Source: Bacilli bacterium
GTDB taxonomy: Bacteria > Bacillota_I > Bacilli_A > RF39 > UBA660
Length of the DNA: 64,000 nucleotides
Direction of reading: 5' to 3'
Assembly (NCBI GenBank): GCA_017450205.1
Contig: JAFSVF010000007.1
Coordinates: 44,060-108,059, forward strand
Shown: piece after piece, positions 5,098 to 36,421 of the stretch
Layout of the letters: each line of letters begins with the position of its first letter
Position numbering within the stretch: the stretch's first letter is position 1
Notes under the pieces: model-generated
Told to the model about the DNA's origin: nothing
Database searches by the model: none
Seen by the model: the letters and a program-made list of their open reading frames with translations, nothing else
Made by a program: the position numbers and the translations under genes

Positions 5098-6216
5098 ATG
5101 AATAAAGGAACTCCAGTCTTAGTTATTACTGGTTATTTAGGTTCTGGTAAAACAACTTTAATTAATAATATTTTAAAACAAAATAAGGAAAAGAAAATTG
5201 CACTAATAGTTAATGATATTGGTGAAGTAAATATAGATGAAGAATTAGTATTAAAATCAGGTTATATAAAACAAGAAGATAAAGGTGATGTAGTACCTCT
5301 ATCTAACGGATGTATTTGTTGTACATTAAAAGAAGATTTAATGAAACAACTTACATCACTAGCAACTAATAAAGATTTTGATTATATAATCATCGAAGCA
5401 AGTGGTATTTGTGAACCACTTCCAATTGCTCAAACTATTTCTATTATGGAACAAACTACTGAATCCTATGGATTACCAAAAGTATGTTACTTAGATAATG
5501 TTTTAACTGTCGTAGATGCTAAAAGACTTGTAAGTGAATTCAATGCCGGCGATGCATTAATTAATAGTGAACATGATGATGAAGATTTAGAAAAACTTTT
5601 AATTGAACAAATTGAATTCTGTAATCAAATTATTATCAATAAAGTAAGTGATGTATCTTCTGAAGAATTAGATACAGTTAAAAGTGTAATTAAAGCACTT
5701 AATCCAACTGCTGAAGTTATTGAAACTGATTATTCAAAAGTAGAAAATGATATTATTCTTGATACTAATAACTTTGATTTAGAAGAGGTTCAAACATCAG
5801 CTGGATGGGTTGAGGCAATGGAACATCCTGAAGAACATGAAGATGGTGAAGCTTATGAATATGGAATTAATACTTTTGTTTTCTATAATAGAAAACCATT
5901 CAAACTAGAAGCTTTCCAAGATGTAATTGAAAAGTATTCAGATAAAATAATCAGAGCAAAAGGATTCCTTTGGACTGAAGAAACTGATTCAGAGACAATT
6001 ATCTTTGAAAAGATTGGTAAAGATAAATCACTAAGATCAATCGGAGCATGGATTATTGATATGCCAAAGAATGAACAAGAACAAATCTTAAAATATAATC
6101 CAGATGTAAAAGCTGCATGGGATCCTGAACTTGGAGATAAAATGAATAAGATAGTCTTTATTGGTAGAAATATGGATAAAGATGAAATTATTGCAGATTT
6201 AGAAAATTGTCTATAG
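5098..6216 (+). CDS. COG0523-family (CobW/YjiA/ZigA-like) GTPase metallochaperone
   Basis: Walker A GYLGSGKTT, a CICC metal-binding motif and a CobW C-terminal domain. RBS gaaaggaag precedes the ATG at 5098. Confidence 0.85.
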   Translation: MNKGTPVLVITGYLGSGKTTLINNILKQNKEKKIALIVNDIGEVNIDEELVLKSGYIKQEDKGDVVPLSNGCICCTLKEDLMKQLTSLATNKDFDYIIIEASGICEPLPIAQTISIMEQTTESYGLPKVCYLDNVLTVVDAKRLVSEFNAGDALINSEHDDEDLEKLLIEQIEFCNQIIINKVSDVSSEELDTVKSVIKALNPTAEVIETDYSKVENDIILDTNNFDLEEVQTSAGWVEAMEHPEEHEDGEAYEYGINTFVFYNRKPFKLEAFQDVIEKYSDKIIRAKGFLWTEETDSETIIFEKIGKDKSLRSIGAWIIDMPKNEQEQILKYNPDVKAAWDPELGDKMNKIVFIGRNMDKDEIIADLENCL

Positions 6217-6406
6217 TCAAACGGTTATATAGCGTATTTTTCTTGATTATTGAAACTATAATTTATATATTTAGTATGAAACGAAATGAGGGTGTGAATA
6301 TATACTCTCATTTTTTGTTTTTAGAAGGGAGGAATTAATTATTGATTTAGAAATAAGGGATATTGATTTACAAAGTATTATTTTTGAAATTAGGGGAGTT
6401 TATGTT

Positions 6407-7192
6407 ATGTTATCTTCTGATGTTGCAAAGATATATCATGTAGAAACTAAAGTTTTGAATCAAACAATAAAAAGAAATATAAATCGTTTCCCAGAGACTT
6501 TTTGTTTTCAATTGACTAATGATGAATTAAAAAATCTATCTTCAAGGTCACAAATTGTGACCTTGAACAAAAGTAATAATTCAAGAGGATATAATATAAA
6601 GTACATGCCATATGTTTTGACTGAACAGGGTATCATGATGCTTTCTGGTTTGTTAAAAAGTGAAATTGCTGTGCAAGTAAATGTTCAAATCATTGAAGCT
6701 TTTTGTTTAATGAAAAAATATTTTAATGATGACGCTTTAGTATCAAATCACGAAATGAGAATACAAAAGTTAGAAAAAGTATTTAATAATTATTTAGTTG
6801 AAACCAAATGCAATAAGATATTTTTTGAAGGGCAAATATATGACTCATATTCTATATTACTAGAAATATTTAATAAAAGTAGTAATGAAATAATTATTAT
6901 AGATAATTATTTTTCAAAAGATTTATTAGATATATTAAGAAAACTGGAAAAGAAAATAATAATTGTTTCTAAAAATTTTGATAATGAATTAATTAAGAAA
7001 TATAATTCACAATATGAGAATATAGTATTTTTAAACAATAACTCTTTTCATGATAGATTTATAATAATAGATAGAAAAATTGTTTATTCGTGTGGAGCAT
7101 CATTTAAAGATTTAGGTAAAAAATGTTTTGCAATTAATGAGTTTAATGATAAAGAATATCTTAATAAAATTCTTTCTATCATAAATGTATAG
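6407..7192 (+). CDS. ORF6N (KilA-N-like) DNA-binding domain protein with unknown C-terminal domain
   Basis: The N-terminal roughly 110 aa match the ORF6N pattern (SDVAKIYHVETKVLNQ...RFPETFCFQLT...LTEQGIMMLS). Confidence 0.55.
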   Translation: MLSSDVAKIYHVETKVLNQTIKRNINRFPETFCFQLTNDELKNLSSRSQIVTLNKSNNSRGYNIKYMPYVLTEQGIMMLSGLLKSEIAVQVNVQIIEAFCLMKKYFNDDALVSNHEMRIQKLEKVFNNYLVETKCNKIFFEGQIYDSYSILLEIFNKSSNEIIIIDNYFSKDLLDILRKLEKKIIIVSKNFDNELIKKYNSQYENIVFLNNNSFHDRFIIIDRKIVYSCGASFKDLGKKCFAINEFNDKEYLNKILSIINV

Positions 7193-16918: not shown

Positions 16919-18715
16919 ATGTCGGATATAAGAAATGCGTATTTAGGTTTATTATTAGCTTATAGTATTGTTGTATTTTTACTTATCATGATAAGAGATA
17001 CTAATAATAACAATTCATTTAAAAAATCTTTAAACTTGTTTAATACATGTTTATTTGTTTTTATAATTGGACTAGTTATTAATATATTAGGTAATAATTT
17101 TTATGATACAAGTAATTGGTACTCATTAAAAAATGTATTTTTAGCTAAGGGCTATTGCGCTTATTTATTTTCACTTATAGCATTCTTGTCTTCTTATTAT
17201 TGTGTTAATATTTTTAATTTTCAAATGAATGTATTACCTAAAAATAAAAAGAGTATTTTTTACTTCTTATTTTATATAATTTCAATTATTTTAATATTTG
17301 CATTACCTATAACAATTGAATTAAATGATGGTAGATTCTCATTTACTGGTCTATCTGTAACATATACTATGATAGCAGCTTTCTCATCATTTGTACCTGT
17401 AATTATTGAATTTATAATGAATATAAGAAAGATAGATTATTTTGAACTATTTTCACCATTCTTATTCTTTGCATTATGTATACTTTCAATATATTTTCAA
17501 TATGTAGTTAATTTATCACTTAATGAATTAGTAATAGCATTCTCTCTAGTTGTTACTTATTTTGGCGTTGAAAAAAGAGAAGAAAAACTTCAAGAAAATA
17601 TAAGTAATGCAATTATTTCTCTACAAAAAGGAGCTAGATTTAAATCAGACTTCTTATCTAATATGTCTCATGAAATAAAAACACCACTAAATTCAATTCT
17701 TTATACATCTAGAACATTAAATGAAAATAATAATATTAATTATGCTACTAAAAGAGAAATCAATGATATTATCTATTCCTCAGATATGCTTCAAGAAGTA
17801 ATAAGTAATATATTAATGGTTAATAAACTAGAAAATAATAAAGCTAATTTTAATAAGATTAATTATAACATTAAAACTGAAATTAAAACCTTACCATTTG
17901 TAGAAAAAATGAAAATAGATCCAAATGGAATAAACTTCTTTGTATATATAGATCCAAATGTACCAGATTTAATCTATGGTGAAAAAGAAGCAATTAGACT
18001 AATAATTAATAACGTATTAACATTTGCTCTTAACTATGTTAAGAGTGGTTCTTTAACTTTAAAAATATCTTGGGATGAAGAATCAGATAAAGGTTCTCAA
18101 TTAGTTCTAGAAGTAGAAAACGTTGAAGAAGGAATTGGAAATCTTTATAAGAATATAGATAACTTATCTGTATCTATATTTGACTGTGTTCAAAATTCAG
18201 ACTTTGGATTAGGTTTAGCATCAATTCTTACAAATAAATTAAATGGTAAAATTGATTTAGAAATCGAAGAAAACAGAAACAATATTATATTTAATATTCC
18301 TCATACAATCGGAGTTAAAATGCAAAACTTTGATAATGTAAGTTATGAAGGTAAGAAAGTACTAGTAGTAGATGATGTTAACTTAAATTTAAAAATTGCT
18401 AATAATGTATTCTCAAGTCTTAATATTGCATGTGATCTTGCAAACTCAGGTAGTGAATGTATTGAATTTGTAAAAAATAATATTTATGATTATATATTCT
18501 TAGATATAATGATGCCAAACTTAAATGGTGAAGAAACATTAAAAAAATTAAAAGAAATAGATGGTTTTAATGTTCCTGTTATAGCATTAACAGCTGATGA
18601 TGTACCAGACGCTGAAAAGAAGTATTTAGAAAAAGGTTTTTCAGGTTTTATAATAAAACCATTTACAAAATCAGATATAGTTAATGTTCTTGAAATTACT
18701 AATGGAGGTGATTAG
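16919..18715 (+). CDS. hybrid sensor histidine kinase (multi-TM, HisKA, HATPase_c, C-terminal REC)
   Basis: H-box KSDFLSNMSHEIKTPLN. Receiver segment VLVVDDVNLNLK...FLDIMMPNLNG...ALTAD. Confidence 0.85.
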   Translation: MSDIRNAYLGLLLAYSIVVFLLIMIRDTNNNNSFKKSLNLFNTCLFVFIIGLVINILGNNFYDTSNWYSLKNVFLAKGYCAYLFSLIAFLSSYYCVNIFNFQMNVLPKNKKSIFYFLFYIISIILIFALPITIELNDGRFSFTGLSVTYTMIAAFSSFVPVIIEFIMNIRKIDYFELFSPFLFFALCILSIYFQYVVNLSLNELVIAFSLVVTYFGVEKREEKLQENISNAIISLQKGARFKSDFLSNMSHEIKTPLNSILYTSRTLNENNNINYATKREINDIIYSSDMLQEVISNILMVNKLENNKANFNKINYNIKTEIKTLPFVEKMKIDPNGINFFVYIDPNVPDLIYGEKEAIRLIINNVLTFALNYVKSGSLTLKISWDEESDKGSQLVLEVENVEEGIGNLYKNIDNLSVSIFDCVQNSDFGLGLASILTNKLNGKIDLEIEENRNNIIFNIPHTIGVKMQNFDNVSYEGKKVLVVDDVNLNLKIANNVFSSLNIACDLANSGSECIEFVKNNIYDYIFLDIMMPNLNGEETLKKLKEIDGFNVPVIALTADDVPDAEKKYLEKGFSGFIIKPFTKSDIVNVLEITNGGD

Positions 18716-18718
18716 AGG

Positions 18719-20536
18719 ATGTTAATTACAGTTACTTTAGAATTTTTATCATTTCTATTTTTAATAATAATATTCTGTTCATTTATGATTAGAAACAAAA
18801 ATAAATCCGATGAATCAATATTCTTCTTTAGATTAACTCTTGTTACATTAATAACAATATTAGTTGAAATAGGAGCAACATTTACATTAGCTTATAGAGA
18901 TATTGTACCAACATTAAATATTATATTTAATAGACTATATGTCTCTTTAATTGCTCTTCTCATGCTTCAAATTAGTTATTTTATAATATTCCTATACAAT
19001 GATGAATTTAAAATAAATGAACAAAAGGGAATTAAAATAAGAAAACTATTAGATATTTCATGTTTAGCAGTAGTAATTATTGATTTATTTTTACCAATGA
19101 AATTTATCAGTAATGAATTTGGTGATAAATTTGGTGTTTATACTGATGGTCCAGGAGTATCCTTTGTAATAATTTATGGATTTATATTATTTATACTTGA
19201 TTTAATATCATGCTTAAAATTTAGAAATTATTTTACTAAACATAGAGTGACTTGTTTAATATTTTATTTTCTATTATTATTTGATGGAGTAATTGCAAGA
19301 CTATTACTACCTGGTATAACAATCATATGTTGTGAAGTAGCACTAATAGTTATTTTAATATATTTCCTTATTGAAAATTATGATACTAAAAGGGTAGAAC
19401 AATTAAAAGTAATAAGAGATCAAGCAAATAAATTTGACCAAGAAAGAACTAAATTCTTATCTAATATGTCCCATGAAATAAGAACTAGTTTAAATACTAT
19501 CGTAGTAACATCAAATGATTTACTTGAATCTAATGTAGATAATTCAATAAAAGAAGAACTTAAAGATTGTTTATATGCATCTGATACTTTACTAGAACTA
19601 GTGGGTAACATCTTAGATTTAAATAAAATATCTAGTGAATTCATATCATTAAACAATGTTCAATATAACTTAAAGAAAGAAGTAGAGTCTATAGTAGAAA
19701 TGACTTCTATTAGAATTGAAAATAAACCTATAAACTTTATTATGAATATAGATAATAGTATCCCAAATACATTATATGGTGATAAAGTTTATATGAAACA
19801 AATAATGAATAATTTACTTACTAATGCATTTAAATATACTAATGAAGGTGAAGTTAAATTTAACATTAGTTGTGAAAATGATTTAACTAATAAAAAATGT
19901 CATTTAATAATATCAGTACAAGATACAGGTATTGGTATTCAAGATACTTCTAAGTTGTTTAATAAATTTGATAGGTTAAATGTAGATAAAATAAGTACAG
20001 TTGAAGGAACTGGTTTAGGTTTAGTTATTACAAAGAAAATAATAGACTCAATGAAAGGTACTATTAATGTTGAATCAACTTACGGAAAAGGATCAAAATT
20101 CACTGTTGAATTAGATCAAGAAATTGTAGATAAACCAGTTAATGTAGTAAATAAATCTCAAGTCATTAATTATAACTTTGGTAATAGAAGAATACTACTT
20201 TTAGATGATGATAAATTAAATTTAAAGGTCGAAAAGAAAACATTATCTAAATTTAACTTTAAGATTGATACAGTTAATAATGTAGATGAAGCATTAGATT
20301 TAATTAAAAACAATGGTTATGACTTAATATTTACAGATGTCTATTTAGAAAATGGTTATGATGACCAAGTACTAAGATATGCTAAAAAGTTTAATATACC
20401 AGTTATATGTTTAACAGCAGATGCTATCGAAGGTGCTGAAGAAAAATATTTGAACTTGGGATATAGTTATTATATTTCAAAACCATATACAGTAAGAGAT
20501 ATCTATGATGTATTAGAAAAAGCATTTAGAAAATAG
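18719..20536 (+). CDS. hybrid sensor histidine kinase (multi-TM, HisKA, HATPase_c, C-terminal REC)
   Basis: H-box RTKFLSNMSHEIRTSLN with DTGIGI and GTGLGL motifs. Receiver segment ILLLDDDKLNLK...DLIFTDVYL...CLTAD. Confidence 0.85.
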   Translation: MLITVTLEFLSFLFLIIIFCSFMIRNKNKSDESIFFFRLTLVTLITILVEIGATFTLAYRDIVPTLNIIFNRLYVSLIALLMLQISYFIIFLYNDEFKINEQKGIKIRKLLDISCLAVVIIDLFLPMKFISNEFGDKFGVYTDGPGVSFVIIYGFILFILDLISCLKFRNYFTKHRVTCLIFYFLLLFDGVIARLLLPGITIICCEVALIVILIYFLIENYDTKRVEQLKVIRDQANKFDQERTKFLSNMSHEIRTSLNTIVVTSNDLLESNVDNSIKEELKDCLYASDTLLELVGNILDLNKISSEFISLNNVQYNLKKEVESIVEMTSIRIENKPINFIMNIDNSIPNTLYGDKVYMKQIMNNLLTNAFKYTNEGEVKFNISCENDLTNKKCHLIISVQDTGIGIQDTSKLFNKFDRLNVDKISTVEGTGLGLVITKKIIDSMKGTINVESTYGKGSKFTVELDQEIVDKPVNVVNKSQVINYNFGNRRILLLDDDKLNLKVEKKTLSKFNFKIDTVNNVDEALDLIKNNGYDLIFTDVYLENGYDDQVLRYAKKFNIPVICLTADAIEGAEEKYLNLGYSYYISKPYTVRDIYDVLEKAFRK

Positions 20537-25831: not shown

Positions 25832-26716
25832 ATGAATTACTATAATGAAATTAAAAATGAACTTATAAATAATGAGATAAATAGAAGAGTAAAAAACTAT
25901 TCAATTAATAAAAACGAACTAGATACGTACTATACAGTTGGAAAATTATTATTAGACGCTGGTAACCAATATGGAGATAGAATTATTAAAGAGTATTCTT
26001 TAAAACTTACAAAAGAATTAGGACCAGGATATAGTCAAAGAAACCTAAGAAACATGAGACAATTTTATAAAATATCTCTAAAATGGCAGACATTGTCTGC
26101 CAAATTAAGTTGGAGTTATTATTGTGAAGTTCTTTGGTTTGATGATGATAGATTTCAATATTATATTAAGGCTGCAGAATTAAATAATTTATCAGTAAGA
26201 CAATTAAGGGAAAGAATAAAATCTAATGAATACGAAAGATTGCCAGATGAAACAAAAAACAAAATTATCAATAGTCAAAAACTTGATGTAAAAGATTTAG
26301 TTCCTAATCCCATATTAATTAAAAATAAGAATAATGTTGAAATTGTAAATGAAAAAGCACTACATAGATTAATCTTAGAAGATATTGAATCGTTTATGAA
26401 AGAACTAGGAAATTCCTTTTGCTTTATAGGTAGTGAATATAAAATAAAAATAGGCGATAGAAATTATTATATTGATCTATTGTTATTCAATATAAAGTAT
26501 AATTGCTATGTAGTTGTTGAATTAAAAGTAACTGAATATAAAGCAGAATATATTTCACAAGTTCAAAAGTATATGAATTACATAGATAAAAATGTCAAAG
26601 AAGTAAGTAACAATAATACAATAGGAATATTAATTTGTAAAAGAGAAAACAAGTTTGTAATAGAATATTGTTCAGATGAAAGAATTGCAGTTAGAGAATA
26701 TAAGATTATATTATAA
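25832..26716 (+). CDS. YhcG/DUF1016-family PDDEXK nuclease-domain protein
   Basis: YhcG-like N-terminal region (NYYNEIKNELINNEINRRV...TVGKLL). C-terminal core YIDLLLFNIKYNCYVVVELK carries a D...ExK motif. Confidence 0.7.
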   Translation: MNYYNEIKNELINNEINRRVKNYSINKNELDTYYTVGKLLLDAGNQYGDRIIKEYSLKLTKELGPGYSQRNLRNMRQFYKISLKWQTLSAKLSWSYYCEVLWFDDDRFQYYIKAAELNNLSVRQLRERIKSNEYERLPDETKNKIINSQKLDVKDLVPNPILIKNKNNVEIVNEKALHRLILEDIESFMKELGNSFCFIGSEYKIKIGDRNYYIDLLLFNIKYNCYVVVELKVTEYKAEYISQVQKYMNYIDKNVKEVSNNNTIGILICKRENKFVIEYCSDERIAVREYKIIL

Positions 26717-26908: not shown

Positions 26909-27292
26909 ATGGAAGAGAAAAATTCATATGTATTTATCGGAACTGAATACTTTTTAAGTAGTAAATCAACTGCATTTTGTTATTTAAAGTTAAATAATGA
27001 AATTGGACATGTAGAAATTAAATATATTTTTGATTTAGTTCATGAAAAGTTTTTAAGTAATAATAATATTTATCACTTAGATAATGAAGTATTTAATAAA
27101 ATAGTTAATACAAAAGTTTTTGATAATAATGGAGTTCCTGGAATAATTTCTAAAATGGTTCCAGATAATATATGTAGAGATTTCGTTTATATTTATAATG
27201 AACTTACTAAGGATTATACTTTTAGTGATTCATTTGCAATTAATCATATAAATGAAGAATATAAATTAAAAATAAAAGAAAGAGTGATTTAA
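26909..27292 (+). CDS. hypothetical protein
   Basis: ORF with RBS ggaggg. No recognisable motif. Confidence 0.4.
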   Translation: MEEKNSYVFIGTEYFLSSKSTAFCYLKLNNEIGHVEIKYIFDLVHEKFLSNNNIYHLDNEVFNKIVNTKVFDNNGVPGIISKMVPDNICRDFVYIYNELTKDYTFSDSFAINHINEEYKLKIKERVI

Positions 27293-27293
27293 T

Positions 27294-27980
27294 ATGCGCG
27301 AGTGGATAAAATATAATAAAGGTTCAAATCCTTTAAAAATACTTGAACTTGTTAAAGATAATAATGTATGGAATTTAAATAGAGAAGAAATACATCAAGT
27401 TCTTGATAAGAATGATATTTTATTTTTTATGGTAGATGGATCAATTAAATTAATGATTTATGTTAATGGATTAAAAGTAAATGGTGTCTTTGGCTATGGA
27501 GAAAAAGCTAAAGTAGAAGATATCTACTTAGATGATTTAAAAAAAGAATTATCTTTATTTAAAGATAATAAAGAATATATGGAAAAAGTTAATAATCATA
27601 TTCAAGTAGCTGAAGTATATAAAAAGTTTAATAATGATTGTGAACTTAATATTGATGATTTAAAAGTAATTTATCAAGTTAACAAACCACTTGAAGGCTT
27701 TACTTCAGCACTTGAACAAAAACTAGACGAGATGAAAAGTAATCGAATTAAAGAAAAAGATATATCTGAAATATTTAATGTTAATGAAGAAAAAATTGCG
27801 TTTGATATTGATGAAGTAAATGAAGAAACTGAAGTATTCGTAGGTAATCTATCAGTAGATGATTATAATTTAGATCTAATAAGTAATATTAAATATGTAA
27901 TTGGATACATTTACTTAGATAATAAAAAATTAAAAACAAAAGTACATGTTAAATCCTGCTGGGGATATGAATGTTTATAA
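27294..27980 (+). CDS. hypothetical protein
   Basis: Translationally coupled to the upstream ORF. No recognisable motif. Confidence 0.4.
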   Translation: MREWIKYNKGSNPLKILELVKDNNVWNLNREEIHQVLDKNDILFFMVDGSIKLMIYVNGLKVNGVFGYGEKAKVEDIYLDDLKKELSLFKDNKEYMEKVNNHIQVAEVYKKFNNDCELNIDDLKVIYQVNKPLEGFTSALEQKLDEMKSNRIKEKDISEIFNVNEEKIAFDIDEVNEETEVFVGNLSVDDYNLDLISNIKYVIGYIYLDNKKLKTKVHVKSCWGYECL

Positions 27981-28010
27981 AAAATAGAAGAACTATCTTC
28001 TATTTTTTTT
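27981..28010 (+). terminator. rho-independent terminator
   Basis: aatagaaga-acta-tcttctatt stem followed by T8. Confidence 0.45.
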
Positions 28011-28043
28011 ATATTTTAATTATAATTATACTAGGTGGTATAT

Positions 28044-28529
28044 ATGAGAGTAATAAAAATCATATTTGCTTGTTTAGGTATTCTAATATCTATTGGTACT
28101 TTCTATATAGTATCTAATTATTACGATAGTACTAATGATAGATTTTCATTTATAGATTTAAATGTTGTAGAAGTAAAAAAAGATACTGGAGACAATACTC
28201 AAGATGAAGTAGTAGGAGACAGACCAAAAATAACATTCTCAAATGTATATAGTTTAAAATATAAATATTATCAAATGGCTGGAATATTCTTTGTAAATGG
28301 ATTTTTAGTTTCTCTAATAATTATCTGGATGCTTCAAACAAGATTTTATAAAATAAGTGCATCAGAAAACATTGAAGACATAGATAACTTAATTGTATTA
28401 TTTATGACAGCAATTACTTTAGGACTAATCCTAGCTATGACTCAAATAGTTATTTTTAATAGAGTTTATAGAACTACTAATACTAAAAATATTAATAGTA
28501 TTAATACAAAAGAGGTAGTTAAAAATTAA
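28044..28529 (+). CDS. small membrane protein (3-4 TM)
   Basis: Hydrophobic segments. The ATG at 28044 is preferred over the GTG at 28035. Confidence 0.45.
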   Translation: MRVIKIIFACLGILISIGTFYIVSNYYDSTNDRFSFIDLNVVEVKKDTGDNTQDEVVGDRPKITFSNVYSLKYKYYQMAGIFFVNGFLVSLIIIWMLQTRFYKISASENIEDIDNLIVLFMTAITLGLILAMTQIVIFNRVYRTTNTKNINSINTKEVVKN

Positions 28530-28559
28530 CTTGTTTTATTAACAAGTTTTTGTTATAAT
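28529..28559 (+). promoter_or_regulatory. putative sigma-A promoter for the small K-rich ORF
   Basis: TTGTTT, 17-nt spacer, TATAAT. Overlaps the upstream terminator hairpin aacttgtt / aacaagtt. Confidence 0.4.
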
Positions 28560-28586
28560 GTTAATCGACGCAAAGGAGTGAAATAA

Positions 28587-28736
28587 ATGAGAACTTATAA
28601 AAAGAATTTACCAGATGGAGTAAAATCTGCATTCGGAGCTGTTCGTGGAGTTAAAGTTAAATTTATTAACAAAAAAATGGCTGACGAAAAAAAGAAAAAA
28701 GAAATCGCTAAAAAAGCTGCAAAATCTGCTAAATAA
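28587..28736 (+). CDS. small lysine-rich protein (49 aa); below the 60-aa length of the shortest ORF in the supplied track
   Basis: Strong RBS aaaggagtg 6 nt before the ATG. Sequence MRTYKKNLPDGVKSAFGAVRGVKVKFINKKMADEKKKKEIAKKAAKSAK. Own promoter and a T-run after the stop. Confidence 0.5.
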   Translation: MRTYKKNLPDGVKSAFGAVRGVKVKFINKKMADEKKKKEIAKKAAKSAK

Positions 28737-28814
28737 TTTAGTTGATTTTTTTTTGCTTAATTTTTGACAAAAAAATAATTTGTGATAATATATATCCTAC
28801 GAAAGAGGATTATT

Positions 28815-29654
28815 ATGATCAAGTTAGATAAAGATTCAAATGGAATAATTAATATTAATAATTTAAATGTTAATATAGATATGTTTAATCCTGATAGATG
28901 TGGATTTAGGTTTGTTAAAGATGAAACAAGATATTTCTTTAAAAGATGTGGTAAAGAAGAAACCTTTAAGGAAATTTTTGCATCAAAAGTCGCAGATAAA
29001 ATGGGTATTGAACATGCAAGTTATGATATTGCTACATTTAGTGGTAATGAAGGCGTTGTATGTAACGCAGTTAATAAACAAGATGAAGAATTTATTTCTT
29101 TTGGTCAAATAAGAAGTAAACTTAAAATTAGTTATAAATATGATAATAGTATTGATACTATGAAAAAGAAAATATTACCTAAGATATGTTTATTTAATTC
29201 TAAAGAAGAATTAGATAAATTTATTAATGTATTTATCTTTGATATATTAATGGCTAATAGTGATAGAAACTGTGGAAATATAGGTTTTATTAAAAAGAAT
29301 AATAATTATAGAGTTTCTCCAATATTTGATAATGAAGAAATAGTAAATACACTTGCAATTGATGAACATACATATTCATTTACTGTTATAAATAGAAAAT
29401 TTGATGGTTTAAATTATGATACAATCATAGATTTCTTTAAAAATAAAAACTATGGTTATTTACTTAGTGATGCAATAGATAATTTCAATTTAGAAGATTT
29501 ATATGATTTAGTAGAAGAAATAAATCAAATATATCCTAATAAATTTGATAAAGACTATGAAATCCATGTTCTTAGTGAACTTAAAAGAAATTTACAAATA
29601 CTAAAAGAGTATAGATATGATTACTATAATGAAAGTAAAATGTTGAGAAGATAA
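28815..29654 (+). CDS. HipA-like (HipA_C kinase core) protein
   Basis: FINVFIFDILMANSDRNCGNIGFI...RVSPIFDNE matches the HipA C-terminal catalytic region pattern (F..VFN.L..N.D.H.KN......LSPAYD) with His replaced by Asn. RBS aagagga. Confidence 0.45.
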   Translation: MIKLDKDSNGIININNLNVNIDMFNPDRCGFRFVKDETRYFFKRCGKEETFKEIFASKVADKMGIEHASYDIATFSGNEGVVCNAVNKQDEEFISFGQIRSKLKISYKYDNSIDTMKKKILPKICLFNSKEELDKFINVFIFDILMANSDRNCGNIGFIKKNNNYRVSPIFDNEEIVNTLAIDEHTYSFTVINRKFDGLNYDTIIDFFKNKNYGYLLSDAIDNFNLEDLYDLVEEINQIYPNKFDKDYEIHVLSELKRNLQILKEYRYDYYNESKMLRR

Positions 29655-29656
29655 TT

Positions 29657-30286
29657 ATGGATGCGCATTTTGATTCAAATAATTTAAAAGAGTTTTTAAA
29701 AACAAATAAACCAATAGGTAAAGGTTACTTTGGTAGCTGTTACTTATATAATAATGACTACGTATTAAAAGCTATGGTTGAAGAATCTAAGAAGAAAAGT
29801 AATAGAGTTATTTATAAAGAAATTAAAGAAGATAAAAAACTAGAAGAATATTATTTTAAGACTTATGATACTAACTATACAACTAAAGAAGAAAGACTAA
29901 AAGAAACAATGGAAAGACTTTCCTATACAAAATATAGTTATGATTTAATTCAAGGATTAGCATACTATTATAATTATTGTTTTGGTACAGTATTAAAGTA
30001 TTATAAAGATTATTTAACTCTAGCGCATTCATCAATATATAATTTATCACAAGAAGAATTAGATGAGTTATATCATAACATTGAAGTATCTTATGAAGAT
30101 TTATTTAATAACTATATATATCCATTAGATATTAGAGATGAAAATATAATGTTTAATAATAATTTAGAAGTTAAACTAATAGATTTAGATGATGGATTAA
30201 CTTTTTATAATTATAATAAAAGTGAGAAAAAAGAAGAAATATGTAGAAATAAATTAAAAGAAATTAGAAAGGATCTTAAAAGATGA
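29657..30286 (+). CDS. minimal protein-kinase-like fold protein
   Basis: Gly-rich loop IGKGYFGSCY, beta3 Lys in VLK, catalytic-loop-like DIRDENIM and DFG-like LIDLDDG. 209 aa. Confidence 0.4.
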   Translation: MDAHFDSNNLKEFLKTNKPIGKGYFGSCYLYNNDYVLKAMVEESKKKSNRVIYKEIKEDKKLEEYYFKTYDTNYTTKEERLKETMERLSYTKYSYDLIQGLAYYYNYCFGTVLKYYKDYLTLAHSSIYNLSQEELDELYHNIEVSYEDLFNNYIYPLDIRDENIMFNNNLEVKLIDLDDGLTFYNYNKSEKKEEICRNKLKEIRKDLKR

Positions 30287-30846
30287 AGATTATAAATAAA
30301 AGAAAAATAAAAGGGAGTTTAATAGGTTTAAGTTTACTTGCTTTAGTAGGATGTACAAAAATAAATCCAGATACAGATATTCCAAAGTCTATTGATGCTT
30401 TAAATATCGAAGAAGTAAATGATGAAGAAGTGGTAAAATTTAATGATTTAGAAGATATAAATGTTTACTTCGAATATAGAGTAACTGATAAAAATATTAT
30501 ATATGGATCATCTGTTTTAAAAGAAGTAGATGGTGATAATTATAAAGCCTACTACAATTATAAAAGTGGTAATTTAGTGGGAGTAGAATTTGATAACTTA
30601 AGTGAAGCTGATAAATTCTTTTACAGAAATTATTTAAATACATCGTTCATTAAAGTATCAACTCTTGAAGAACAACTTACTAATCCAAATAATATTAAGT
30701 TAATTCAAGATGGTATAAACTTTGATGAAGAATATATAAACTTGGATACTTTAAGATTAATGGACGCTTCAATGTATCCACATAACAAAGAAGTATTTAC
30801 AAATGAATTAGATAAAGTATGTGAAGAAAAGAAGCTAACTAGATAG
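30283..30846 (+). CDS. lipoprotein, unknown function
   Basis: Lipobox LLALVGCTK. Coupled to the upstream kinase-like gene. Confidence 0.6.
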   Translation: MKIINKRKIKGSLIGLSLLALVGCTKINPDTDIPKSIDALNIEEVNDEEVVKFNDLEDINVYFEYRVTDKNIIYGSSVLKEVDGDNYKAYYNYKSGNLVGVEFDNLSEADKFFYRNYLNTSFIKVSTLEEQLTNPNNIKLIQDGINFDEEYINLDTLRLMDASMYPHNKEVFTNELDKVCEEKKLTR

Positions 30847-30975
30847 TTAACTTCATTTACTAAAGGCTTTTTAGAACCTTCCAAAATTTGACAAAATCAT
30901 TAAAAAGTAATATATTATGGGCAATTCAAGGGAAGATGATGACTTGAATTTCCGTATAGATAATGGGGGTTATTT

Positions 30976-32778
30976 ATGGAAAAAAATTATAGTTTTTATA
31001 GAAATGAACCAGTATTAGATTTAAATCCTAATCAAACAATGTATTCATTTATTAAAAATATTAATGAAAATAATATGGATAAAAAAGCAATTGATTTCTT
31101 TGGTACAAGAACATCATTTGATAGTTTAATTAATGAAAGAACTGTTAAACTTGCTGATGCATATTATAAAAATGGTGTTAGAGAAGGAGATTCTGTTGGT
31201 TTGCTTTTAATTAACATTCCTGCTGTTCAAGAAAATCTTTTAGCACTTAGTTATCTTGGCGCAACTGCTAAATGGATTGATGTAAGAAATAAAGAAAAAG
31301 ATTTAATTGATAAATTAAATGAAAATGATGGTTGTAAATTTGTAGTTGCATTTGATGGAGTTGCAAATAATGTAATTAATATTCTTAATGAAACAAATGT
31401 CGAAAAAGTATTAGTTGTTTCTCCTAAGGATTATTTAAATCCAATTGCTAAAATTGTTGCTAATTATAAAGATTTTAAAGAAAACAAAAAAATAGATATT
31501 GATTATAACGATAAAGTTATGAAATATATGGACTTTTATAAAGAAGGTTCAAAAAATACTGATATTACACCTGTATCGTTTGAAAAAGATAGACCATCTA
31601 TTATTGTTCAATCAAGTGGTAGTACTGGTAAGTCTAAATCTATTTTACATACTGAGTATAACTTTAATAGTGAAATGGTTAAAGAATCATATTCTGATTT
31701 ACCTTTAGTTGCTGGCAATAGGATGTTTGTTACTGTTCCACCATTTATTATATATGGTTTATGTAACTCGATTTATGCAGCAATGACTTTTGGACTAGAA
31801 GGTGTTCTTTCTCCATACTTAGACGATGATGTAGTTTTGAAAGCTCTAGGTAAGATTGATATTTCTGCTGGTGTTCCATTACATTATAGATGTATATATG
31901 CTAAAATGGTTTCTTTAAAAAATGAAATTGATGAATTAATTAAATTAGATTCACCATCAGTTAAAAAAGATTTATTAAAGAAAACAAAAGAATTAGATGA
32001 TATTATTAATAAGTTAAAAAATACTAAAGCATTTATTTCTGGTGGAGATAAAATTACTGCTGATGAAATATTAAGAATGGAACATACATTTAACGTTCCT
32101 GTTATTAATGGATATGGAAATAATGAAATGTGTGGTGCTTCCGTTATTACACCTGTTTATGGTTCTAAACCTGATTCAATTGGTATTCCTTTAAAAGGTG
32201 TAGAAATTCATGCTTTTGATGAAAATACTAATGAACAACTACCTGATGGTGAAGTTGGAGAATTATGTATGAAATCAGATAATATGTTTGTTGAATATAT
32301 TAATAATCCAACTGAAACAAATAAAATTAAACAAACTCATAAAGATGGATCTTCATGGGTTCATACTGGAGATTTAGGATTTATTGATCAAGATGGATTT
32401 GTATTTGTAACTGGTAGAAATCGTCGTTTAATTAAAATGGATAGCTTTAAAATATCACCTGAAACTATTGAATCATGTGTTTTAAAACTTAATTATATTA
32501 AGGATTGTGTAGTAGTAGGTGCTCCTGATGAAGAACATAAGGAAGTTCCTATGCTATATATTGAAAAAAATGTCGATGTTACAGTAAACAACGATGAATT
32601 GATCGAATGTGTAAAACAATATTGCGCAGAAAACATTCCTGATTATGAAAATCCTGCATATATTGAAATTTTAGATAGTATACCATATTCGAATGGTAAA
32701 CATAATTTTAAATTATTAGCAGAAAAAGCCAAAAATTTTGTAAACGAAAATAATAAGAGTAAAGTATTAATGAAATAA
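30976..32778 (+). CDS. AMP-dependent synthetase/ligase (acyl/aryl-CoA ligase family)
   Basis: AMP-binding motif SSGSTGKSK. Adenylation-domain core motifs YGNNE and GDLG. Confidence 0.85.
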   Translation: MEKNYSFYRNEPVLDLNPNQTMYSFIKNINENNMDKKAIDFFGTRTSFDSLINERTVKLADAYYKNGVREGDSVGLLLINIPAVQENLLALSYLGATAKWIDVRNKEKDLIDKLNENDGCKFVVAFDGVANNVINILNETNVEKVLVVSPKDYLNPIAKIVANYKDFKENKKIDIDYNDKVMKYMDFYKEGSKNTDITPVSFEKDRPSIIVQSSGSTGKSKSILHTEYNFNSEMVKESYSDLPLVAGNRMFVTVPPFIIYGLCNSIYAAMTFGLEGVLSPYLDDDVVLKALGKIDISAGVPLHYRCIYAKMVSLKNEIDELIKLDSPSVKKDLLKKTKELDDIINKLKNTKAFISGGDKITADEILRMEHTFNVPVINGYGNNEMCGASVITPVYGSKPDSIGIPLKGVEIHAFDENTNEQLPDGEVGELCMKSDNMFVEYINNPTETNKIKQTHKDGSSWVHTGDLGFIDQDGFVFVTGRNRRLIKMDSFKISPETIESCVLKLNYIKDCVVVGAPDEEHKEVPMLYIEKNVDVTVNNDELIECVKQYCAENIPDYENPAYIEILDSIPYSNGKHNFKLLAEKAKNFVNENNKSKVLMK

Positions 32779-32797
32779 TTGATGTATTTCTATTTAA

Positions 32798-32829
32798 GGA
32801 AACGATATATATCGTTTCCTATTTTTTTT
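32798..32829 (+). terminator. rho-independent terminator after the ligase gene
   Basis: ggaaacgat-atat-atcgtttcc stem followed by T9. It sits inside the N-terminal extension of the 32779 ORF-track entry and argues against that start. Confidence 0.65.
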
Positions 32830-32880
32830 GCTTTTTATTTATGTTATAATTTCACTAGAACAAGAATAGAAGGTAGATAT

Positions 32881-35334
32881 ATGAACTTTGATTTGTTAAA
32901 TTTATGTACATTTATATATACTGTAACGATTAGTATATTATTTTTTAGAAAGAAAAGAGTAAAATCTACTGAATTAACTATTTTTTCTTTTTTACTTGTT
33001 ATTTCTGTTTGTTCACTATCATGTGAGCAAGGTTTGATTTTGCTTGTTGGTTTCAAAAATACTTTGTTTTATACTGCTTTATTAAAATTATTATTAATTT
33101 TTTATTACTTATGGACTGCGTTCTTTTTACTATATACAATATCTGTTTCATTTGAAAAACTAATTACTAAGAAGTTTTTGATTCCATATTTTTTATTTGG
33201 TTTAGCTATTATTGGTATTGTATTTACATTACCAATCCAATTAATTGATTATGGCAGTTCGGGATATTCTTCTGGTCTTGCTGTAGATTTTATAAGTTCT
33301 ATTTGTGGATTATATTGTTTTATTATGATTGTTTTATGTGTTATAAGCTTTAATAAATTTAAAACTAAAAAGTATCTACCTATTATTATTTTATTAATAT
33401 TACTTATTGGATCATTTGTTATTCAACGTTCGAATCCACAAATACTTTTAATGGCTTTTGTTCATGCATTTACGGGATTTGTTATGTACTTTACTGTTGA
33501 AAATCCAGATTTAGGAATAATTAAAGAACTTGAAAAAGCAAGAGATGAAGCTAATAGAGCTAATAAAGCTAAGAGCGAATTCTTAAGTTCCATGTCACAT
33601 GAAATAAGAACACCTCTAAATGCTATTATTGGTTTTTCTGAATTTATCTTAGATAGTGATTCTATCGAAGATGCTCATAATACTGCTAAAGATGTTGTAT
33701 GTGCGTCTCAAACATTACTAGAAACAGTTAATGGTATTCTAGATATATCTAAAGTTGAATCAGGTAAACTAGAAATTATTGAAGACAATTATAACTTAAA
33801 AGAATTACTTGATAACACAGTTAGAATAGCTAAAGCAAGAATGGGTGATAAACAACTTGATTTAAGAGTTCATTTCGCACCTGATCTTCCTGATACATTA
33901 TATGGTGATAAAAATAACTTAAATAAAGTTATTATTAACTTACTTACTAATGCAATTAAATATACTAAAGAAGGCTATATTGATTATTCAGTCCAATGTG
34001 CTAAAACACCTGAAATATGTAGACTTATTATTACAGTTAAAGATACTGGTATTGGAATTAAAAAAGAAAATATTGATAAGTTATTTACTAGATTCCAAAG
34101 ATTTGATGAAAAGAGTAACGGTACTATTGAAGGTACAGGATTAGGACTTGCTATTACTAAACAATTAGTTGAAATGATGGGTGGTAATATTGTAGTTTCT
34201 TCTATTTATGGAGAAGGTTCTAACTTTACAGTTGCACTAGATCAAAGAATAAGTCTTGCTCATGTTGCTCGTGAAGATATTCAAGCAGATGAATATAGAT
34301 TTGATCTACATGATAAAAAGATTCTTGTAGTAGATGATAATAATTTAAACTTAAAACTTGCAGAAAGAATATTCTTAAAATATAACTGTAAAGTTCAATG
34401 CGTAACAAGTGGATTCGAATGCTTAGATTACATTAATAAAGGATATACTTATGATTTAGTATTACTAGATGATGTAATGCCTAAGATGCTAGGTAGTGAA
34501 ACTCTAACAAGATTAAAAAGAATTGAAAACTTTAAAACACCAGTTATTGCATTAACTGCTAATGCAATCGCAGGTATGAAAGAAAAATATTTACTTCTTG
34601 GTTTTGATGATTATTTAGCTAAACCAATTGAAAAAGATCAATTAGAAATAATTCTTAAGAAATTCTTACTTGATAAGAAAGAAGCTAAGAGTCTAAGTGA
34701 TGATGTATTAACTTCAAGTAGACCAATGAGTGTTATTAGTGATGAAACTAAAAATGATATTTTATCAAGTGCTTCTTCTAAGAACACAGTAGTAGTTACT
34801 AAAGAACAAGCTGCACCTGAACCTGCAACTCAAGCACAAACAGCAAAACCTGAAGAAAAATCTCAAGTTGAAGGAATTAAATTCAATGATAAAGGTGCTA
34901 ATGCTGAAATAGTTATTCCTGAAAATGAACAATTTACTGATTACTCTGATAAGAGAATCTTAGTAGTAGATGATAATAAATTAAACTTAAAAGTTGCTCT
35001 TAAATTCTTATCGAGATATAAATTCCAAGAAGATGAAGCATACTCCGGTGAAGAATGTCTTGAAAAGATTAAGAATGGTGAAAAGTACGATATTATCTTT
35101 ATGGATATTATGATGCCTAACTTAAACGGTGTAGAAACATTCCATGAATTACAAAAGATTGAAGGATTTAATATCCCAGTAGTAATTGCCTTAACAGCAG
35201 ATGCTGTTGAAGGTGCAAAAGAAAAGTACTTAAAAGAAGGTTTCGCAGAATATATCTCTAAACCAATCGTAAGAGAAAGACTTGATAAAGTAATACATAA
35301 AGTATTAGATGAAAAAGAACAAAGTGAAGACTAG
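32881..35334 (+). CDS. hybrid sensor histidine kinase with two C-terminal receiver domains
   Basis: Multi-TM N-terminus and H-box KSEFLSSMSHEIRTPLN with DTGIGI and GTGLGLAI motifs. REC1 (ILVVDDNNLNLK...) and REC2 (ILVVDDNKLNLK...DIIFMDIMMPNLNG). Start at the ATG at 32881, which follows the terminator and a TATAAT box. Confidence 0.85.
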   Translation: MNFDLLNLCTFIYTVTISILFFRKKRVKSTELTIFSFLLVISVCSLSCEQGLILLVGFKNTLFYTALLKLLLIFYYLWTAFFLLYTISVSFEKLITKKFLIPYFLFGLAIIGIVFTLPIQLIDYGSSGYSSGLAVDFISSICGLYCFIMIVLCVISFNKFKTKKYLPIIILLILLIGSFVIQRSNPQILLMAFVHAFTGFVMYFTVENPDLGIIKELEKARDEANRANKAKSEFLSSMSHEIRTPLNAIIGFSEFILDSDSIEDAHNTAKDVVCASQTLLETVNGILDISKVESGKLEIIEDNYNLKELLDNTVRIAKARMGDKQLDLRVHFAPDLPDTLYGDKNNLNKVIINLLTNAIKYTKEGYIDYSVQCAKTPEICRLIITVKDTGIGIKKENIDKLFTRFQRFDEKSNGTIEGTGLGLAITKQLVEMMGGNIVVSSIYGEGSNFTVALDQRISLAHVAREDIQADEYRFDLHDKKILVVDDNNLNLKLAERIFLKYNCKVQCVTSGFECLDYINKGYTYDLVLLDDVMPKMLGSETLTRLKRIENFKTPVIALTANAIAGMKEKYLLLGFDDYLAKPIEKDQLEIILKKFLLDKKEAKSLSDDVLTSSRPMSVISDETKNDILSSASSKNTVVVTKEQAAPEPATQAQTAKPEEKSQVEGIKFNDKGANAEIVIPENEQFTDYSDKRILVVDDNKLNLKVALKFLSRYKFQEDEAYSGEECLEKIKNGEKYDIIFMDIMMPNLNGVETFHELQKIEGFNIPVVIALTADAVEGAKEKYLKEGFAEYISKPIVRERLDKVIHKVLDEKEQSED

Positions 35335-35585: not shown

Positions 35586-36002
35586 ATGGATACATACACA
35601 GAAGAAGACAATAGACAATATACAGATTATTCAGATAAAAGAATTCTTGTAGTAGATGATAATAAATTAAATTTAAAAGTTGCTCTTAAATTTATGTCTA
35701 AATATAATTTTAAAACTGATGAATGCTATAGTGGAGAAGAATGTTTAGATAAAATTCGTAGAGGAGAAAAGTATGATATTATTTTTATGGATATAATGAT
35801 GCCTACACTTAATGGTGTAGAAACATTCCATGAATTACAAAGAATTAAAGGATTTAATACTCCAGTAGTAATTGCTTTAACTGCAGATGCGGTTGAAGGA
35901 GCAAAAGAAAAATATTTAAGAGAAGGATTTGCTGAATATATTTCAAAACCAATAGTTAGAGATCATCTAGATGAAGTAGTTCATAAAGTATTAGATAAGT
36001 AA
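35586..36002 (+). CDS. stand-alone receiver (REC-only) response regulator
   Basis: 138 aa. Roughly 85% aa identity to REC2 of the upstream hybrid kinase, with a shared 28-nt identical DNA stretch. Confidence 0.85.
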   Translation: MDTYTEEDNRQYTDYSDKRILVVDDNKLNLKVALKFMSKYNFKTDECYSGEECLDKIRRGEKYDIIFMDIMMPTLNGVETFHELQRIKGFNTPVVIALTADAVEGAKEKYLREGFAEYISKPIVRDHLDEVVHKVLDK

Positions 36003-36004
36003 TT

Positions 36005-36421
36005 ATGAATATTGAAACTATAAAGAATACATTAGAAATAACTAATGGAGATAATATATTTGTATATTTACCAAGTACATTTTTAAATTTTAAAAGACTA
36101 TTAGAGTTTGAACTTAAAAAGTATGGAGTAAATAAAATATATTTCCATGAAGTAGATATGAATAGAGAAAAAGCTATGATTGATTATTTAGATATAGAAA
36201 ATATATACAAGTATCCAATGTTTGATTATAGTGATTTTAACAAGTATGCTAAACTTCAATATAAGTTTATTATATTTGATGTAGATAGAAATAAAATATA
36301 TTCTTATTTAGATAAAAGCAAGCTAGAAAATACTTTAAAGCATATTGAATCTACTAGAGAATACTTTAATAATTGTTTAGAAAACAATTCTTTAAAAATA
36401 TATATTCATAAAGAAGATTAA
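36005..36421 (+). CDS. hypothetical protein
   Basis: ORF abutting the REC gene. No recognisable motif. Confidence 0.4.
   Translation: MNIETIKNTLEITNGDNIFVYLPSTFLNFKRLLEFELKKYGVNKIYFHEVDMNREKAMIDYLDIENIYKYPMFDYSDFNKYAKLQYKFIIFDVDRNKIYSYLDKSKLENTLKHIESTREYFNNCLENNSLKIYIHKED

Follow-up and report, generated by a model that had tools for sequence, protein, structure and literature searches.

Gene content and transcription signals of the region

The DNA analyzed here, a 64,000-nucleotide stretch of contig JAFSVF010000007.1 from a Bacilli bacterium (hereafter the window), carries four consecutive genes that encode a small lysine-rich protein (p49), a HipA-like kinase, a short kinase-like protein that we call mini-kinase (MK) and a lipoprotein (Table 1). 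The corresponding NCBI entries (MBQ7240084.1 to MBQ7240087.1; IJS56_01460 to 01475) are labeled, in this order, hypothetical, 'HipA domain-containing protein', hypothetical and hypothetical. An earlier sequence-only reading had described these four genes together, and the open reading frames (ORFs), their spacing and the coupling of the last three genes that it described are all found in the sequence. It also listed p49 as missing from the ORF track, but NCBI already annotates this gene (hypothetical protein IJS56_01460/MBQ7240084.1). The ORFs are not chance occurrences, as each of them is conserved in relatives and under purifying selection. In our view, the region holds two independent things, namely a stand-alone p49 gene and a kinase operon (28815-30846) that lies in a small variable islet.

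The window has a GC content of 26%, starts with rpoC and also carries genes for pyruvate kinase, PBP1A and a PilB-type ATPase, and therefore represents chromosomal DNA. A prophage or plasmid origin was considered and rejected, as viral relatives were not found and rpoC and the other housekeeping genes lie on the same contig. Indeed, three alignment scans of the IMG/VR viral contigs returned no relatives of the three families concerned, the HipA-like one included.

Table 1. Positions of the genes and predicted signals in the window (RBS, ribosome-binding site; TM, transmembrane)
Feature	Position	Strand	Details
p49 promoter	28531-28559	+	-35 TTGTTT (28531-28536), 17-nt spacer, extended -10 TGtTATAAT (28551-28559); read from sequence, function predicted
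p49	28587-28736	+	49 aa, Lys-rich; RBS AAGGAG at 28573-28578, 8 nt before the start
p49 3' hairpin	28721-28754	+	Weak, AU-rich; spans the stop codon of p49, with a U9 run behind it; from fold energy
Kinase-operon promoter	28764-28791	+	TTGACA at 28764, 14-16-nt spacer, TG-preceded -10; predicted by consensus scan, 10/12 with TG motif
HipA-like kinase	28815-29654	+	279 aa, ATG start; RBS AAGAGG at 28803-28808
Mini-kinase (MK)	29657-30286	+	209 aa; starts 2 nt past the HipA-like stop
Lipoprotein	30283-30846	+	187 aa; ATGA, 4-nt overlap with MK
p127	26909-27292	+	Conserved upstream block
p228	27294-27980	+	Coupled to p127; conserved upstream block
3-TM protein	28035-28529	+	Conserved upstream block

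The p49 gene has a promoter of its own, a strong RBS and a basic C-terminus, as the sequence-only reading had described. The consensus scan did not report this promoter (score 9/12) because its -35 element matches at only 3/6 positions, while the -10 element, the 5' untranslated region (UTR) and the RBS are invariant in the related loci L001, L002 and L017. An AU-rich hairpin at 28528-28548 (-6.5 kcal/mol, z -2.0) overlaps this promoter and is probably the terminator of the upstream membrane-protein gene. The hairpin at the 3' end of p49 reaches -8.7 kcal/mol (z -1.1) in the window and -9.9 kcal/mol (z -2.3) in L001, where a U-to-C change converts a G-U pair into a G-C pair. Judged by its sequence, this hairpin and the U9 run that follows probably form an intrinsic terminator, which might allow some read-through.

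For the predicted promoter of the kinase operon, the -10 element could be either GATAAT at 28784-28789 or TAATAT ending at 28791, and the length of the spacer depends on this choice. Its TTGACA element lies within a 12-nt stretch that is missing from L001, L002 and L017. The HipA-like protein was taken to start at the ATG shared by its homologs instead of the GTG at 28782 proposed by the ORF finder, which is located upstream of the RBS. Given that the downstream gene for an AMP-binding enzyme has its own promoter (TTGACA-17-TATATT at 30888) and that TTGACA precedes the HipA-like gene, positions 28815-30846 look like a single transcription unit.

The two kinase-like proteins and the lipoprotein

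The sequence-only reading had recognized a HipA_C-like protein, and the evidence for this kinase fold is clear from Pfam, from profile comparison with the PDB and from an AlphaFold2 (AF2) model searched with Foldseek. HipA_C (PF07804) matches with 40.1 bits (E 4.1e-10) against a gathering score of 30.5 and is carried by all homologs, and the PADLOC model PDC-M03A matches at 1.1e-20. A profile of seven HipA-like homologs retrieved CtkA (5.7e-9) and Legionella HipT (2.9e-6) from the PDB. The AF2 model, with a predicted local distance difference test score (pLDDT) of 82 and a predicted template modeling score (pTM) of 0.84, likewise found CtkA (template modeling score 0.64, E 1.6e-9) and, at E values of 1e-7 to 1e-5, HipT(Lp) and HipA; PI4K and PI3K were more distant matches (ranks 31-50). 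The protein is a core-only kinase without the N-subdomain-1 of HipA, and it belongs to a large family, for which an exhaustive profile search returned 2312 representatives at E<=1e-3 and 188 at E<=1e-10, mostly of 260-295 aa.

The kinase residues of the HipA-like protein comprise K43 (YFFK), E53, the catalytic loop DRNCGN (aa 150-155; nt 29262-29279) and the Mg-binding D172 (FDN). Among 26 HipA-like sequences, D143, D150, R151, D172 and N173 are invariant and Y40, K43, E53, N148 and N155 nearly so, and the window protein keeps all of them; the conservation of the catalytic Asp residues, which the sequence-only reading had proposed to check, is thus complete for D150 and D172. Its description of the loop as partially degenerate holds for the His, which is replaced by Asn, but not for the catalytic Asp and Asn, which are kept. 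This H152N exchange and a second one, S83C, are shared by the window protein and its nearest relatives (>=65% identity; including P0001 and P0002 for the Asn), whereas deeper members of the clade retain His and Ser, and position 83 is Ser in >90% of the family. A Gly-rich loop motif similar to SxxGxQxK was not recognized; the N-terminal motif NGIININNLNVN is invariant in the clade, and residues 1-33 are modeled with pLDDT <65. The ratio of nonsynonymous to synonymous substitution rates (dN/dS) is 0.32 in comparison with a 91%-identical ortholog. We therefore rejected the idea of a dead pseudokinase, given this ratio and the retained Asp, Asn, Asp, Lys and Glu. The sequence rather suggests a constrained protein that is plausibly active, perhaps in an attenuated form.

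For the MK, a protein-kinase-like fold is supported less strongly than HipA_C is for its neighbor, yet consistently. The eukaryotic protein kinase (ePK) family Pkinase (PF00069) matches with 23.1 bits (E 5.5e-5), below its gathering score of 31.7, over profile positions 3-143 of 263. All 15 of the 15 family members behave alike, with sub-threshold matches at E<=0.01 (best 2.7e-6) over positions ~3-143 of 263. The motifs quoted in the sequence-only reading are present as a G-loop (GKGYFG, G21-G26), VLK (K38), DIRDEN (158-163, D158...N163) and IDLDD (175-179). G23, G26, K38, D158, N163, D176, D178 and D179 are invariant in 15 sequences, and even relatives of 30-40% identity keep the motif IYPxDxKxxNI...VK[LI]IDLDD. 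The protein ends ~30 residues after IDLDD (the DFG equivalent) with a single helix and does not have a complete C-lobe (subdomains VIII-XI: APE, alphaF-alphaI).

Structure comparison points in the same direction. PDB profile matches of the MK are weak and confined to the alphaE/catalytic-loop/DFG segment of protein kinases. In its AF2 model (pLDDT 68) the N-lobe is poorly modeled, while residues 120-209 score 73-95. Foldseek matches were protein kinases for all of the top 50 in the PDB, with PRPK/Bud32 in third place, and for nearly all in BFVD, although the best E values were only 5.8e-3 and 1.2e-4, respectively; the catalytic-core segment superposes at 1.3-2.5 A over 55-70 residues. With a dN/dS of 0.16 the gene is under purifying selection. 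Only 16 clusters of this family occur in a collection of 5.8 billion proteins, and further distant relatives occur in gut metagenomes. This weaker but consistent evidence is in line with a rare ePK-like family that consists of the N-lobe and the catalytic core.

The third protein carries a signal peptide, MKIINKRKIKGSLIGLSLLALVGC, and a lipobox L-V-G-C (nt 30343-30354) with Cys24, as identified by inspection. Its orthologs in L001, L017, L032 and L070-72 keep the equivalent Cys (LVGC in L001, LSGC in L070). It had no match in Pfam, PADLOC, NCBIfam or PHROG.

Conserved core, variable islet and wider families

In relatives the gene order reads HAD, HI0933-like, FAD-dependent protein, a first variable position (slot A), p127, p228, TM protein, p49, a second variable position (slot B, which holds the kinase genes) and then the AMP-binding enzyme and hybrid histidine kinases. 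All syntenic relatives, even those without the kinases, have p127, p228 and the 3-TM protein (26909-28529), and this block and p49 are the stable core of the region. None of the three proteins matched Pfam, NCBIfam, PADLOC or PHROG, and PDB profile searches with p127 and p228 stayed at chance level. The block is clade-specific, and p228 is 72% identical to its L001 ortholog (dN/dS 0.11).

Slot B is the fixed site at which the kinase cargo is gained, lost and duplicated. It contains HipA-MK-Lipo (Lipo standing for the lipoprotein gene) in the window, MK-HipA-MK-Lipo in L001, L016 and L017, MK-HipA-MK in L035 (where the contig ends in the downstream MK), HipA-MK-MK in L033, HipA-MK in L030 and L031, and MK, a HipA fragment, MK, Lipo and HipA in L032. 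Two loci, L071 and L072, carry MK-Lipo and L070 carries Lipo only, so that both genes occur without the HipA-like one. There are 1 to 2 MK copies per locus. Wherever a locus of the clade has a HipA-like gene and sufficient sequence behind it (window, L001, L002, L004-8, L016, L017, L030, L031, L033, L035), the next gene is an MK, which either overlaps the HipA-like one or starts 2 to ~10 nt after it. In the comparison of the window with L001, the two kinases are 45% and 48% identical and thereby the most diverged proteins of the block; the TM protein follows with 50%, while p127, p228, the lipoprotein, HAD, the hybrid histidine kinase, HI0933 and the FAD-dependent protein range from 57 to 81%, and p49 reaches 98%. 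The sequence-only reading, which considered a toxin-antitoxin (TA), phage-defense or signaling role, had named conservation as core genes with housekeeping neighbors as a finding that would refute it, and half of this picture is found: the site is fixed between the genes for a FAD-dependent oxidoreductase and the AMP-binding enzyme, but the kinase content varies among relatives and the kinases evolve faster than their neighbors.

Further differences occur around this site. Slot A of the window holds a DUF1016/YhcG PD-(D/E)xK nuclease gene (25832-26716; PADLOC candidate PDC-S02, 3.5e-61). At the same position L033 encodes a KilA-N protein and L070 a Bro-N protein, and L001, L017 and L071 have no gene there. 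Slot A is thus a second small variable or integration slot beside the conserved core, with mobile- or defense-type cargo. On the other side, the AMP-binding enzyme of the window (30976-32778) shares only 25% identity with that of L001 (10640-12427) and is therefore probably not orthologous, and L001 and L016 carry a NUDIX gene on the opposite strand at the downstream edge. It follows that the downstream boundary of the islet varies too. Three hybrid histidine kinase/response-regulator genes occur in the window (16919-20536, 32779-35334), a tandem pair upstream and a single gene downstream of that for the AMP-binding enzyme, and L070-72 have tandem hybrid kinases at the equivalent position. Two neighboring 138-aa ORFs (35586-36002, 36005-36421) are possible tandem paralogs.

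In p49, the sequence MRTYKKNLPDGVK...RGVKVK... is followed by a basic tail. The family comprises 20 clusters of 39-57 aa, in which the N-terminal half is invariant (MRTYKxNLPxGVK..F..RGVKV) and the Lys-rich tail variable. Compared with L001, p49 shows 98% amino acid identity and 5/150 nucleotide differences, while the flanking proteins are 45-81% identical, and identical residues use the same codon in 93% of cases, versus 60-77% in ten neighboring genes. This near-invariance extends into the UTRs, which is unusual: a cassette of ~230 nt with sharp edges (window 28527-28755, L001 6990-7215, also L002 and L017) is conserved at ~95-97% DNA identity. It spans the upstream stop codon and hairpin, the promoter, the 5' UTR, the RBS, the coding sequence and the 3' hairpin with its U9 run. 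The genes flanking the cassette are saturated at synonymous sites among the same genomes. Such conservation could reflect strong expression-linked constraint, a function at the RNA level or recent exchange. No RNA family was found in Rfam, either at gathering level over the whole window or at E<=1 on 28300-29000. For the protein, Pfam, NCBIfam, PADLOC and PHROG gave no match and the PDB profile search only chance-level ones.

That p49 belongs to the kinase module, as the framing of the sequence-only reading implies, is not borne out, and its implied role as antitoxin or regulator of the HipA-like kinase is highly improbable. In the window the HipA-like gene does follow p49 directly, and some read-through would be possible given the weak terminator. 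Against this, p49 is a self-contained unit with its own promoter and terminator-like hairpin; near-identical copies exist in L070-72, where the HipA-like gene is absent; an MK gene stands between p49 and the HipA-like gene in L001, L017 and L035; and its conservation (98%) is decoupled from that of the HipA-like kinase (45%). Homologs with their own promoter and terminator and no kinase nearby also occur in other Bacilli clades, where they precede an unrelated lipoprotein gene (L013-L015) or lie immediately upstream of rpsB-tsf (L073/L074, 7001-9130) or one gene away from it (L010-L012, 6001-10510). We thus rejected p49 as an antitoxin owing to its independent distribution and its own transcription signals, and conclude from these comparisons that p49 is a gene in its own right, which encodes a small basic protein and not a kinase partner. 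It is probably highly expressed. The linkage to rpsB-tsf hints at a translation-related role and, together with the composition of the protein, leads us to guess that p49 is nucleic-acid- or ribosome-associated.

Outside the clade, both kinase families are found in other settings. A contig scan with a first HipA-like alignment found nothing, and a scan with another alignment yielded 12 loci in metagenome-assembled genomes (MAGs). The short HipA-like kinases recovered (22-25% identity) come from MAGs labeled Erysipelotrichaceae, Tenericutes, Lactobacillales and Clostridium sp. CAG:417 and are encoded by single genes or tandem arrays of 2-4 in housekeeping neighborhoods, with no MK, p49, HipB or HipS gene within 6 kb. 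Arrays of HipA_C-only genes in Erysipelotrichaceae-labeled MAGs include four copies in L020 (3411-6744) and two in L023 (5638-7342; see also L024/L025, ~5920-6720). Their conserved neighborhood consists of a polyprenyl-synthase-like gene, the HipA-like gene(s), an optional GNAT gene and a CDF transporter gene, with no recognizable antitoxin. In L026 (5929-8305) a short HipA-like gene immediately precedes, in the same orientation, a gene for a GltX-type class I Glu/Gln-tRNA synthetase (Pfam tRNA-synt_1c, 2.7e-70). GltX is the classical HipA target, but with this single locus the adjacency could be due to chance. Relatives of the MK (28-40% identity) that share the IYPxDxKxxNI...IDLDD signature likewise occur alone. 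One of them (Pkinase 4.2e-7) is encoded between sufD and sufS of a sufCBD-sufS-sufU-mnmA cluster on human-gut contigs (L040/L045, 7962-8642), and the suf-cluster copy in L050 (7959-8420; 153 aa) is apparently truncated at its N-terminus. As these distant relatives of both families are without a partner, the HipA-MK pairing is specific to the clade of the window.

Interpretation of the kinase operon and comparison with known systems

Hip kinases provided the first example of a persistence toxin; HipA and HipT phosphorylate aminoacyl-tRNA synthetases and are silenced by autophosphorylation. Our preferred, though tentative, reading is that the HipA-like kinase and the MK form a variant of the Hip module in which a kinase serves as the neutralizer. 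By analogy with HipA and HipT, the HipA-like kinase would phosphorylate a cellular target and restrain growth, and the MK, which sits in the gene slot held by the HipS/HipN antitoxins of other short Hip modules, would restrain this kinase through phosphorylation or binding. Toxicity, the target, neutralization by the MK and any role of the lipoprotein are what we infer here. We favor this pair because the HipA-then-MK coupling is strict, because occurrence is asymmetric (MK and lipoprotein without HipA-like, but never HipA-like without MK), because the islet is variable, fast-evolving and flanked by mobile-type cargo, and because short Hip kinases have their antitoxins encoded downstream (PMC8262856). 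A toxin dependent on its neutralizer would give rise to such an asymmetry.

Several points weigh against this interpretation. The asymmetry is only suggestive, since independent lineages are few, and the toxicity of the HipA-like kinase is proposed by analogy. The loss of two near-invariant residues in the sub-clade of the window (H152N and S83C) may attenuate the kinase. The site is chromosomally fixed and vertically inherited, the viral-contig scans gave no phage relatives, and no DNA-binding autoregulator was found at the locus. The MK-Lipo pair persists without the HipA-like gene, from which it follows that the MK has some function of its own, and neither family needs a linked partner in general, as distant members are solitary in housekeeping contexts. 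A narrower version, which we consider unlikely, is a kinase-on-kinase TA or abortive-infection module, in which a HipA toxin would be held inactive through phosphorylation by the MK, similar to type VII. Such a module would have neither a DNA-binding nor a HipS-type partner, and its organization would fall, with the same low probability, outside the ten Hip organizations catalogued.

The fixed chromosomal position and the purifying selection on both kinase genes could also be explained by a non-toxic, lineage-specific regulatory module, with the kinases acting as a cascade or as parallel regulators that are possibly linked to the envelope through the lipoprotein and the 3-TM protein. This alternative, a serious rival that we rate only a little below our preferred reading, would also fit the solitary members of both families in housekeeping operons of related low-GC bacteria, the retention of MK-Lipo without the HipA-like gene, and the fact that profile-library scans of the locus detected no antitoxin- or defense-type partner. 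For core signaling genes, however, such fast divergence would be unusual, as would be the differences in presence and copy number that close relatives show within a few kb; moreover, neither kinase carries a sensor or transmembrane domain, and the HipA-family kinases characterized are almost all toxins, CtkA being a secreted effector.

A distinctly unlikely possibility is that slot B is merely a shared insertion-prone site, where the HipA-like gene inserted into an existing MK/lipoprotein operon to which it is functionally unrelated. Indeed, this site is occupied by MK-Lipo or just Lipo in the sister clade, variable cargo is found on either side of the conserved core, and members of both families occur independently elsewhere. 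What argues against a chance neighborhood is that in each arrangement examined the HipA-like gene ends 2 nt before the MK start or overlaps it, and that an MK lies directly downstream of the HipA-like gene even where the genes were rearranged or duplicated (L001, L032, L033, L035). It is more doubtful still, indeed improbable, that either enzyme or both act on lipids or small molecules, with a metabolite or a component of the envelope as the substrate, rather than on proteins. PI3K/PI4K lipid kinases are among the structures matched by the HipA fold (Foldseek ranks 31-50), weak Kdo/WaaP and YrbL matches occur among relatives of the MK, and the MK is devoid of the substrate-binding ePK subdomains VIII-XI and is coupled to a lipoprotein gene; yet the best matches are protein kinases throughout, and the similarities to lipid and Kdo kinases are weak and far under the family thresholds.

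To our knowledge, the Hip neutralizers described are HipB, HipS, HipS-HIRAN and Stl-like or resolvase-like proteins. If our preferred Hip-type pair is true, a second kinase in the antitoxin slot would add an enzymatic route of Hip neutralization. The MK would then also represent a new, very small kinase-like family (~210 aa) in which the protein-kinase fold may be reduced to its minimal catalytic unit. Beyond this locus, short HipA-like kinases without partners, some of them in tandem, form large and unstudied families in uncultured low-GC gut Bacilli, which challenges the assumption that a HipA_C domain denotes a TA toxin.

The absence of a HipB-like helix-turn-helix (HTH) partner, which the sequence-only reading had pointed out, agrees with library scans: at sequence level, Pfam, NCBIfam and PADLOC gave no match to HipB-like HTH, HipS-like (couple_hipA), HIRAN or Stl-like proteins in p127, p228, the TM protein, p49, the MK or the lipoprotein. 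The PADLOC search that it had suggested recovered only component A of the candidate system PDC-M03, and the HIRAN partner (PDC-M03B) is absent from all neighbors. PDC-M03 consists of a HipA-domain protein (A) and a HIRAN-domain protein (B) (PMC13245101, PMC11706625), so that, given the missing HIRAN protein, the islet is not PDC-M03 as defined. In the short Hip families HipI, HipJ and HipM, a putative antitoxin gene lies downstream of the kinase gene (PMC8262856). The kinase operon resembles these hipIN/hipJS/hipM modules in that its kinase of 279 aa falls within the HipG/I/J/M range (279-321 aa) and is without N-subdomain-1, and in that a partner gene follows immediately downstream. It differs from them and from PDC-M03 in that this gene encodes an ePK-like MK instead of a HipS-like or HipS-HIRAN protein, and in having a lipoprotein as third gene and a fixed chromosomal site.

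With HipBA and HipBST (E. coli HipA and HipT; Legionella HipT), the HipA-like kinase shares the fold and the catalytic Asp, Asn and Asp; unlike these systems, the locus is without HipB HTH and HipS, SxxGxQxK is not recognizable, and the His of DRH is Asn in the sub-clade. The best profile and structural match is CtkA (JHP0940) of Helicobacter pylori (PDB 3akj/3akk/3akl), likewise a short stand-alone HipA_C kinase, with the motifs DRHxGN and FDxG. CtkA is a secreted effector that is encoded by a single gene and translocates into host cells, whereas the window protein is only 15-17% identical to it, has no signal peptide and is coupled to a second kinase. A kinase antitoxin that silences its toxin by phosphorylation has been described for TakA/TglT (Rv1045/Rv1044) of M. 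tuberculosis (PMC7205606); the toxin in that system is a nucleotidyltransferase without sequence relationship, and the analogy concerns the mechanism only. The MK itself is reminiscent of Bud32/PRPK, Rio and Kdo/WaaP kinases and YrbL, which are also small, possess a G-loop, the VAIK Lys, the catalytic D...N and a DFG-like Asp, and are missing canonical activation-segment and C-lobe elements. No such model reaches its threshold on the MK, however, and the YrbL and Kdo matches are weak. Compared with these minimal ePK-like kinases, the MK family has its own signature (RLSxTKY, IYPxDxKxxNI, IDLDD) and stops ~30 residues past the DFG equivalent. On the basis of these sequence comparisons, the locus would represent a Hip-family kinase module with an unprecedented partner that is carried by uncultured bacteria only.

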